From a virus, in the UHGV virus genome UHGV-0067703: 21,971 bases of DNA. One strand, 5' to 3'. Shown one piece after another: positions 15,001 to 18,000 of the stretch. The position numbers were made by a program. Numbering within the stretch: position 1 is the first letter of the stretch; the number at the start of each line of letters is the position of its first letter.

Positions 15001-18000
15001 GAATGCTCTTTTGGGGTTGTCCAGACCAGATCTTCCATGTTGAACTCACTGGCTGTCGCGAGACGTAGCTCAGAAAGTCTGGCCCCCCATAGCAATAGCA
15101 ATTGATGTAACACCTTGTTGGAAGTAACTACTTTTGAGTTCTCCAGCGCCAGCCAAATTTTTGCCAGTTCCGTATAGGTAAGTACACGACTCCCTACATC
15201 TGTTTTTTTCCCAATATTCTTAACACTAAGCTTGAGTAATTCGCATGATGGGATTAACTGGCGGCTGATACACCAGTTAATAACTGAACGCAGTTGTAAC
15301 AACAAAACACGAGCCTTTTTCTTGTTGAGGCTTTCTTGTTTGTCAAAGAAACGAGCCCATGCCGATACTGGGATACTGGCAACTGGCGAGCCTTCAAACT
15401 GTGTGTACATAGTGTTGTACACGACGGATCTGTAAAGCGTCTGTGTATTGGGTTTCAGATCAGTAACATACTTATCCCACCACTGATCCAGGCATTCTTT
15501 TAATGTCAGTTCGCCGTCACTGGGCGCAAAATAATTTTTAGGGTTAACTCCCTTCATGTACAATGCGCGCATCTCACCGACGATAACACGCGCGTCCTTC
15601 AGTGAAGTAGACGGATAGCGCCCGACAGTAAGACGTACTGGCTTACCATTCCAGCGATAACGGTACTGAAACGTGATAGTTCCTGCTGGAGTAATCCGCA
15701 CACTTAACCCGTCACCATCGGTGATTTCAGCAGGGCCAGAGTAGGGTTTTCCGTAGAGGCCTCGTAATTTGGTGTCGCTCAGTGCCAATGCTTTATATCC
15801 TGTACACAAGTTTATAATGTATTCTGTACTCAATATGTACGCATTAGCAAGTGAACAAAACACTTTTCAACGCAAAAGAAGATAATCAACCATGAACAAA
15901 AACGAACTTACACCTTGATTTTAAAACCATAAAGACGGTATTATCAGTCATATGGTGAACAACCAAAATCAATACGCAACAATGTCCTCTTAGTTAAATG
16001 GATATAACGAGCCCCTCCTAAGGGCTAATTGCAGGTTCGATTCCTGCAGGGGACACTTTAAAGACCTTTCTCTACATTTCACTTCATTACATAACAACTT
16101 AAAAAACAGTAAGTTATCACCGAATCGGCCTGATTTTCATTTCAGTTAATTTCATGACATTACAACCTCGTGATGGTATAAGTGATGGTATTCCCCAGTT
16201 CGATATGCAGATACCATCAATTTACCAAAATGAGTACAGATATGGCCATTAATGTGCTTTCCCCCAAACAGATAGAAAACGCCAAGCCGAAGACCAATGA
16301 TTACAAACTTACCGATGGAGGGAGTTTGTATCTACTGGTACGAAAGACTGGTGGAAAATACTGGCGTATGAATTATCGTTTTGATGGAAAACAAGTGACA
16401 TTGGCATTAGGGGTCTACCCAGATGTCTCACTTGCAACAGCGCGGAAACGGCGTGATGAAGCCAGGCAACTACTAGCCGATGGTCGTGATCCTCGTGAAG
16501 CAAAGAAACCCAAAAAGGAAGACCCAATTTCCCCCACGTTCGAGAGTGTTGCCAGAGAGTGGCATAGTGGAACGATGGGGCATCCTGAGTGGAAAGAGAT
16601 CACCCGTAAAAAAATTCTCCGAGAAATGGAAAACCACCTCTTTCCTGCCATCGGTTCAAAGCCTATCGATACGCTCAAAACCCGTGACTTGATGCCGATG
16701 CTGGTTGAGATGACTGAGAAAGGAATTGGTGCCACAACGAGCCGGGTAAAAACCACTATGACGAGCATCTTCCGTTATGCCGTGCAACGTGGAATTGTCG
16801 ATTACAACCCTGCCCACGATCTAAAAGGTGCAATTACGACCCCCAAAGTACGACATCGCCCCGCACTACCTCTCGAACGTTTACCTGAACTGTTAGCGAA
16901 AACGAGAAGTTACACGGGAAGACCATTGACTCGCCTAGCAGTTCTATTTTCCCTGCACACTTTTGTGCGATCCAGCGAACTACGACATGCCAGATGGGAG
17001 GAGATCGACATTGAAAATGGGCTATGGACGATACCAGGACAACGTGAAGAGATCGCAGGGGTTAAATTCTCAGAGCGGGGTGCAAAGATGGGGGCTGCTC
17101 ATTATGTCCCGCTATCTAGTCAGGCTATCGGGGTACTGGAGGATATAAGGAAAATCAGTGGTGAATATCTGCTGGTTTTCCCCGGTGACAGCAACCCATA
17201 TAAACCGATGAGCGAAAACACAGTTAATAAAGCACTGCGAACGATGGGTTACGACACTCAAAGTGATGTTTGCTTGCATGGGTTCAGGGCGATGGCCTGC
17301 TCTGCACTGACCGAATCAGGACTCTGGTCACGCGATGCAGTTGAACGGCAGATGAGTCACCAAGAAAGAAACGAAGTGCGGGCAGCATATGTGCATCTTG
17401 CGCAGCACATGCAGGAACGCCGCAGAATGATGCAATGGTGGTCTAATTATCTGGAACTAAATAAGGACGAATTTCATGCTCCTTATGACTTATCAGGTAT
17501 TAACATTATCAATTAAATTTTCTTATAATTTAAAACAGAGGTCATAATGCAGCATTCAAAAGAGAATGAAACTATATTCTTAGGAAATCTATGGATTGAC
17601 AAAAAAATACCACCATTAGAATATTGTTCATTTGAACGCGCTTCAAGACTATTAGAATGCGAGATTGATGATTTATTACACCTATACGAAATAGGCGCTT
17701 TTAATATCGCATTCAAGGCGGATGGACTTGCAGTTAGATTTAATGTTAATTTCCTCTATAAAAATCAGAAAATGGAAATTGACTTAATTCATCCCGTATT
17801 AACTAATCAATCACTAGAGATGGAATTTTCAACAATATGGTATGACCTTAAAGATGACTCCTTTGAACATTTTGAAAATGGGCTTCAAATTATAGGATTT
17901 GCCTGTGGTATTTGGTACGCCGATGATATGATAAGTGACATAAAAAATGGATTAGCTATAGATCCAGATTATGAATTCAGGCTTAAACCGGTAAAAATAC

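Follow-up and report, generated by a model that had tools for sequence, protein, structure and literature searches.

The window analyzed here is a complete metagenome contig of 21,971 nucleotides (NODE_1064_length_21971_cov_10.13, ENA assembly ERZ1314586), catalogued as virus genome UHGV-0067703. It contains a single tRNA-Arg gene, which is flanked on either side by the integrase gene of a mobile element. The RefSeq starts of these two genes (15788 and 16242) confirm the interval of 15788 to 16245 given in the initial annotation, which had described two DUF4102-type integrases around one tRNA-Arg. Both proteins contain PF13356 (Arm-DNA-bind_3), which we take to be the former DUF4102. The features of the locus are compiled in Table 1.

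Table 1. Features of the argW locus and of the elements adjoining it in the 21,971-nucleotide window.
Feature	Position	Strand	Basis
False-join overlap, 20 bases, CTGACGGAAGAAATGCGCGG	2388..2407		Common to Faecalibacterium-like DNA (1..2407) and phage (2388 on)
Early-left arm of argW-integrating lambdoid prophage, PA8/PA2/ArgO145 Stx-phage type	2388..15982		Identity to prophages and phages
Lambdoid prophage integrase, 389 aa	14619..15788	-	Pfam PF13356 and PF00589; RefSeq start
Phage att arm between integrase gene and core	15789..15982		Promoter scan, repeats, Klebsiella comparison
Candidate integrase promoter, TTGCTA-18-CAGAAT	15850 to 15821	-	Promoter scan
Phage att-arm repeats, TGTAC (three copies) and GTGAACAA (three copies)	15851, 15893, 15955 (GTGAACAA)		Repeat search
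Candidate phage-supplied argW promoter, TTGATT-18-TATTAT	15915..15944	+	Promoter scan
Lambdoid phage att core, 25 bp, TGTCCTCTTAGTTAAATGGATATAA	15983..16007	+	PA8 attL annotation; comparisons with KY203, a phage-free strain and phi346
tRNA-Arg(CCT), argW	15984..16056	+	ARAGORN, Rfam, direct reading
P4-like satellite att core, 21 bp, TTCGATTCCTGCAGGGGACAC	16036..16056	+	Copies in PRO_A-1407
Satellite att arm and region upstream of integrase gene	16057..16241		Repeat search
Candidate arm-type sites, GTGATGGTAT (two copies) and inverted copy ATACCATCA	16170, 16182; 16211		Repeat search
P4-like satellite integrase, 424 aa	16242..17516	+	PF13356, PF22022, PF00589; RefSeq WP_000996992.1
Rest of satellite: 293-aa ORF, AlpA-type regulator, Icd-like, DUF5375 protein, start of Toprim/DUF927 primase	17547..21971	+	Runs to contig end

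The tRNA gene, the only tRNA-Arg that ARAGORN detected in the window, has the anticodon CCT and matches the Rfam family RF00005 at 15984..16055 with 63.4 bits (E = 7e-12). Its sequence is that of Escherichia coli argW and was matched in all 5,426 of the 5,426 complete E. coli genomes searched. The discriminator A of argW is base 16055; it is followed by CTT in the window and by CCA in the native gene, and the 3' end accordingly reads GGGGACA-CTTT here versus GGGGACA-CCA at the native locus of strains KY203 and PA8. According to both ARAGORN and Rfam the body of the gene is intact, and the encoded CCA is absent, as had been noted initially for the ACTT end. All native E. coli tRNA genes encode CCA. 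The RefSeq call at argW is 72 nt long where the satellite is present and 75 nt long elsewhere. A scan of the window found no terminator 3' of argW.

On the left side of argW, positions 2388..16056 are 99.8 to 100% identical to prophages of E. coli JNEC-KY177 and JNEC-KY203, and positions 2388..15983 share 96 to 98% identity with the argW-integrating Stx phages PA8, PA2, VT2phi_272 and ArgO145. By these matches, the left element is a lambdoid prophage that integrates at argW and belongs to the PA8/ArgO145 type of Stx phages. Its left end is cut off in the window by a false join at 2388; the relative of this prophage in KY203 measures only about 34 kb. The left integrase is a full-length tyrosine integrase (PF13356, E = 4e-17; PF00589, E = 2.9e-17), the RefSeq coding sequence at its position in KY203 is WP_113449165.1, and the exact protein adjoins argW in 10 of 10 contigs among the matches listed. 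The gene is divergent from argW, and 195 nt separate its start from the tRNA. The initial annotation had placed a second, unrelated prophage on the opposite strand some 200 bp 5' of the tRNA. The position was correct; as to the lack of relatedness, the left and right integrases are 22% identical (E = 2e-10), which makes them distant homologues of the same architecture, judged by this alignment, and not strictly unrelated proteins.

The right element begins at the tRNA itself. Between 15983 and 21971, all 5,989 of 5,989 bases (100.000%) are identical to E. coli PRO_A-1407 (NZ_CM136170.1), where the element runs on past the end of the window with two Psu genes and an Ogr/Delta gene. Its gene content marks it as a P4-like satellite. 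The integrase, likewise a full-length tyrosine integrase (PF13356, E = 4.9e-27; PF00589, E = 2.6e-18), starts 186 nt after the tRNA and reads away from it, in agreement with the P4-like layout first proposed. The junction of this satellite with argW was found in 77 of the 5,426 complete E. coli genomes (about 1.4%). In PRO_A-1407, the strain in which the copy number was checked, argW is a single-copy gene, and this strain therefore has a sole tRNA-Arg(CCU) gene that lacks an encoded CCA.

Considering its position 5' of the tRNA, the initial annotation had regarded the left prophage as abnormally placed. The core of the phage att site, TGTCCTCTTAGTTAAATGGATATAA, consists of one base upstream of argW plus the first 24 nt of the gene, and with a core at the 5' end the position is the normal one. 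Four independent comparisons define this core. The first 25 bases of the PA8 record are annotated as attL and equal TGTCCTCTTAGTTAAATGGATATAA. In KY203, the same 24 bases occur again next to yfdC, where the prophage has its far end; they stand there on the native upstream sequence of argW, GCCGCATT, and are followed by phage DNA. The native yfdC-argW sequence of a phage-free strain departs from the window exactly at 15982/15983. Furthermore, vB_EcoP_phi346, the record of which has the att site in its interior (attP), reads phage DNA, 25-bp core, phage DNA. Dozens of GenBank records of Stx phages annotate the duplication of the argW core, and a 24-bp att at argW has been published. Taken together, these comparisons place the integration site of the lambdoid phage in the 5' end of argW. 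Since the core is the 5' end of argW, the prophage has no other place than upstream of the rebuilt gene, and its integrase gene necessarily diverges from that gene. The Islander analysis found a 5' tRNA-gene fragment in 159 of 3,919 tRNA-gene islands, a minority class, and Panis et al. (2010) gave the arrangement of integrase and tRNA genes in divergent orientation a class name of its own. The same arrangement, likewise on a tRNA-Arg(CCT) gene, is found in a Klebsiella prophage whose integrase is related.

The left prophage might instead use an attB that merely lies beside the tRNA, or might have brought a complete tRNA-Arg gene with it. Some Stx phages do carry tRNA genes, and the integrase start is about 200 bp away from the tRNA. 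However, in the free-phage genome argW is represented by its first 24 nt alone, beyond which unrelated phage DNA follows, and the repeat at the far end consists of exactly those argW bases, joined to the native argW promoter. Given the far-end repeat of KY203 and the attP of phi346, by which both versions are ruled out, we regard this explanation as vanishingly improbable. The initial annotation had envisaged a comparison with an empty site in which the prophage would prove to use a different attB simply next to the tRNA and the tRNA 3' end would match the native gene. The prophage indeed has a different attB, but it lies inside the tRNA gene and not beside it, and the 3' end differs from that of the native gene.

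Integration into the 5' end would have consequences for the expression of argW. The phage attP carries the 25-bp copy of the argW 5' end about 195 bp upstream of its own integrase gene and pointing away from it. Recombination leaves a tRNA stub of 24 nt, together with the native promoter, beside yfdC, and the prophage comes to lie upstream of the rebuilt argW, the first 24 nt and the upstream region of which are then phage DNA. The rebuilt argW, parted from the native promoter that remains at the 24-nt stub, depends on a promoter from the phage, which the phage region upstream of it would probably supply. The candidate argW promoter in the phage att arm (Table 1) is a match not above the expectation from shuffled sequences, and neither is the candidate integrase promoter there; taken alone, the argW match does not exceed chance. 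Any phage that integrates at a 5' end has to provide a promoter for the gene it restores. The region has diverged in the Klebsiella relative, yet the promoter-like hexamers are conserved, with TTGAT and TAnnAT at unchanged positions. Three TGTAC repeats and the GTGAAC repeats likewise hold their position in the Klebsiella relative. Such repeats are candidate integrase arm sites, and they overlap the putative minus-strand promoter of the integrase gene.

At the opposite end of the tRNA gene, the satellite core TTCGATTCCTGCAGGGGACAC covers the T loop, the 3' strand of the T stem, the 3' acceptor strand, the discriminator and the first C of CCA, and it ends at GGGGACAC. PRO_A-1407 holds three copies of this 3' core, which bound two islands in tandem. 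The first lies in the tRNA and is followed by TTTAAAG; the second, 11.9 kb downstream, has one G deleted and is followed by CA; the third is located 21.4 kb downstream, past a second integrase island, and is followed by CA as well. Fragment damage of the type of this one-base deletion is noted in the Islander paper. In the window, searches allowing up to 3 mismatches found no partner repeat of the satellite core, the tRNA copy being the only one, and no second copy of the lambdoid core, the prophage being cut at 2388. The partner copies of both cores lie outside the window, so that related genomes, rather than this contig, served to define the cores.

Satellite integration restores argW only as far as the first C of CCA, which yields ACTT and an incomplete gene. 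We reconstructed the free attP of the satellite from attL and attR, not from an excised form; the predicted attP reads ...AATATTTAC-TTCGATTCCTGCAGGGGACAC-TTTAAAGACC and would hold the 21-bp copy of the argW 3' end directly upstream of the integrase gene. Integration swaps the CA for DNA of the element, since the att identity does not extend past the first C of CCA; the rebuilt gene thus ends in A-CTT, and ACCA is kept by the fragment displaced to the far end. This agrees with the proposal of the initial annotation that the ACTT end derives from an imperfect att core of the integrated element: identity is lost after that C, and it is the displaced fragment that retains ACCA.

The ACTT end could also be a sequencing error or the end of a decayed pseudogene, in which case it would be no product of integration. 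In favor of this, the coverage of the contig is low, at about 10x. However, all 10 of the 10 independent loci with the satellite integrase read ACTTTAAAG, carry ACTTTAAAGACC 3' of the tRNA and have an identical flank TTTAAAGACC, whereas every locus without this integrase reads ACCA. In addition, the comparison of the window with NZ_CM136170.1 showed zero mismatches over 5,989 bases, and the remainder of the tRNA is intact. The recurrence of ACTTTAAAGACC and the mismatch-free identity to NZ_CM136170.1 lead us to reject this explanation with near certainty. For the maturation of a tRNA that lacks an encoded CCA, the tRNAs of phage T4 without encoded CCA are an established precedent. By analogy with the T4 tRNAs, the AU-rich trailer of the CCA-less argW transcript may be cleaved, the end trimmed exonucleolytically, and the 3' end completed by the CCA-adding enzyme.

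The two cores, separated by 28 bp, are independent of each other. We consider it highly probable that the locus is E. coli argW with two separate, non-overlapping att sites for two different tyrosine integrases. Both junctions in the window are of the kind normally formed by the respective element. The literature describes the argW region as highly variable, and a phage integrase 5' together with IntS 3' of argW was observed in 151 of the 5,426 complete E. coli genomes, as well as in the O157:H7 strain PA8. argW is a tandem-island hot spot, one of the possibilities raised at the outset, and the three 3' cores and two islands of PRO_A-1407 illustrate this. The biology of these elements is already known: the hot spot is documented, the phage att is annotated, and it is usual for P4-like satellites to sit at tRNA 3' ends.

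The exact pair of elements seen in the window was found at one argW in none of the 5,426 complete E. coli genomes. It was also absent from the 24 longest contigs per integrase (48 contigs), from metagenome contigs (JGI metagenomes) and from viral contigs (IMG/VR). CP125920.1, considered as a second case of a lambdoid prophage with a satellite, proved to have a different arrangement in which only 13 bp of the tRNA end are kept.

A further aspect is the reliability of the contig. Its first 1,000 bases have a G+C content of 64%, and positions 1..2387 have no match in E. coli genomes or phages. Positions 1..734 and 2025..2407 are 97 to 98% identical to Faecalibacterium sp. CAG:74. The Faecalibacterium identity runs to 2407 and the phage identity begins at 2388, so that 20 bases are shared, which is exactly the k-1 overlap of an assembly graph with k=21. 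In the ORF at 2148..2474, a gene of a gut Firmicute is continued in the same reading frame by one of an E. coli phage. The stretch 2388-2407 is thus proven to be a cross-phylum false join. A composite window, as suspected initially, is thereby established at 2388-2407; at the tRNA, where another seam had been suspected, there is the tRNA as the only link, and the suspicion of a seam there is justified but unproven. The left homology ends at 16056 and the right homology begins at 15983, so that the two halves overlap only over the 74-bp tRNA. Since nothing but the tRNA is shared by the halves, the co-residence of the two elements is unproven.

The join between prophage and satellite may thus be an assembly artefact, in which two E. 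coli strains were merged through the shared 74-bp tRNA and each half is genuine. The contig is of the SPAdes type for metagenomes, has a coverage of about 10x and already holds a cross-phylum false join at a 20-base word (k-1 for k=21). The tRNA is the sole link between the left and the right homology, and the two halves find their 100% matches in two different strains. The phage region is present in 314 and the satellite junction in 77 of the 5,426 complete genomes, and about 4.5 pairs would be expected if the two were independent, against none observed; this figure presupposes that the two are independent across lineages, an assumption unlikely to be correct. The pair is also missing from the 48 contigs, the JGI metagenomes and IMG/VR. 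Against an artefact speaks that a 5' phage and a 3' element at argW are common in nature (151 genomes), that the cores do not overlap, so that nothing forbids both, and that a 74-bp repeat can be spanned by single reads or pairs and is usually resolved correctly by assemblers. We judge the chance of an artefact to be about even.

That the contig is correct across the tRNA, with the sampled E. coli carrying the prophage 5' and the P4-like satellite 3' of one argW, is a possibility on which our opinion is equally divided. The same topology with IntS in those 151 of 5,426 genomes, the occurrence of tandem arrays at argW and the 28 bp between the independent cores argue for a correct contig, but the pair was never seen elsewhere in the sequences searched and the contig has one proven false join. 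If the contig is correct at this point, only 16008..16035 of the tRNA is certainly chromosomal. Somewhat short of an even chance, in our estimate, is the fuller proposition that the sampled E. coli truly carries both elements on one argW, with the phage supplying the promoter and first 24 nt of its only tRNA-Arg(CCU) gene and the satellite the last 21 nt and the trailer.

If both elements reside on one argW, the expression of this gene would rely on a phage-borne promoter and its 3' maturation on the CCA-adding enzyme, and the decoding of AGG in the strain would be hostage to two mobile elements. Satellite-bearing strains with a sole tRNA-Arg(CCU) gene that lacks CCA are a natural system in which to study how tRNA matures independently of CCA in E. 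coli. The contig, in addition, clearly illustrates how a metagenome assembly can be falsely joined at a k-1 overlap, and it cautions against reading neighboring mobile elements as co-resident.

Both elements have well-characterized counterparts. The left prophage resembles the short-tailed Stx phages that integrate at argW (PA8, PA2, PA28, VT2phi_272, ArgO145 and AU6Stx1; Sepvirinae, Oslovirus) in its integrase, its 25-bp core and the divergent orientation of its integrase gene. It differs from the PA8-type Stx phages in that the window contains the early-left arm alone, the late region, and with it any stx genes, lying outside the contig, and in being closest to prophages of Japanese clinical strains (JNEC-KY177 and JNEC-KY203, 99.8 to 100%). 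Compared with the 5'-fragment islands of Islander, it likewise lies upstream of the rebuilt gene, with the 5' fragment displaced to the far end in the KY203 prophage, and there is no difference in kind. As for the right element, KplE1 (CPS-53) of E. coli K-12 with its IntS shares the use of the argW 3' end, an integrase gene located just downstream and the same orientation. However, IntS is encoded by a different integrase gene, and in genomes with intS at argW the match to the window is confined to the tRNA. The published core of IntS/KplE1 is 16 nt long, CTGCAGGGGACACCAT, and includes CCA, and its tRNA therefore stays at 75 nt; the att region of KplE1 overlaps the integrase promoter (Panis et al. 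2010). With satellite phage P4, which resides at leuX, the right element shares a PF13356 integrase encoded directly 3' of a tRNA and reading away from it. It has in common with P4 and P4-like satellites AlpA, the Icd-like protein, the Toprim/DUF927 primase, Psu and Ogr/Delta, as well as a short core that is the 3' end of a tRNA. In contrast to P4 at leuX, the satellite of the window targets argW, and its core stops inside CCA, leaving the tRNA gene with no encoded CCA.

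At the left end of the window, positions 1 to 2407 are Faecalibacterium-like DNA and not E. coli DNA. Its G+C content was 64% at the start, and its flanks (1..734 and from 2025 on) shared 97 to 98% DNA identity with Faecalibacterium sp. CAG:74. At the join, 20 bases (2388..2407) were common to the Faecalibacterium-like DNA and the phage, and an ORF (2148..2474) continued in frame across it, so that an Hpt-domain protein is fused to the C-terminal part of a Rha-family protein from the phage. The entire window corresponds to ENA contig ERZ1314586 NODE_1064. The Faecalibacterium-like part also contains a 659-aa ORF, listed below with the annotated features of the prophage. 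The central part of this ORF (about 780..1960) had only about 30 to 36% protein identity to its Faecalibacterium sp. CAG:74 homologue, and this low identity between ends that match the homologue at 97% DNA identity suggests that the middle of the ORF is a swapped or fast-evolving region.

Features of the Faecalibacterium-like part and of the prophage
Feature	Window position	Basis
659-aa ORF	12..1991	Weak TPR match
RelE-family toxin ORF, then two helix-turn-helix ORFs	9730..10730 (-)	
isrK	10833..10911	Rfam match above gathering threshold
C4 antisense RNA	10937..11022	Rfam match above gathering threshold
sRNA-Xcc1	11871..11954	Rfam match above gathering threshold

The prophage of E. coli JNEC-KY203 (NZ_AP045179.1), which is only about 34 kb long, was 100% identical to the left part of the window. 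At its end, beside the distal att site (NZ_AP045179.1 1..680), this prophage carries a gene of 8.4 kb that encodes an LPD5-domain protein. For the identical prophage, RefSeq labels the toxin and helix-turn-helix ORFs as RelE/ParE toxin, HTH protein, and HigA antitoxin. ORF6N/antirepressor genes adjoin the three Rfam RNAs (window 10833..11954).

The satellite integrase was also found in other sequences. E. coli PRO_A-1407 (NZ_CM136170.1 7604..29057) harbors a tandem array at argW, the tRNA-Arg(CCT) gene, in which the P4-like satellite (11.9 kb) is followed by a second integrase island that carries a SIR2-family gene and encodes a rolling-circle replication protein. The 21-bp satellite core, which bounds this array, occurs in three copies, the middle one lacking one G. 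The layout of CP125920.1 (5380..6000) differs, in that the same satellite integrase comes after early genes of lambdoid type and an AlpA-like ORF of 66 aa. There, the tRNA end is reduced to CTGCAGGGGACAC alone, followed by the satellite flank TTTAAAG. In addition, TTGCAGGTTCGATTCC occurs as a separate fragment 300 bp upstream; this locus is either situated at argW or derived from it.

A relative of the integration module at the 5' end of argW was present in Klebsiella phage 1 LV-2017 (KY271401.1 680..960). This record carries a complete tRNA-Arg(CCT) at its end, and a related integrase is oriented divergently to it. Both the TGTAC and GTGAAC repeats and the hexamers that resemble promoters were conserved between this phage and the window prophage. 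Taken together, these shared sequence features indicate that the 5'-end integration module is not confined to E. coli but extends to this Klebsiella phage.
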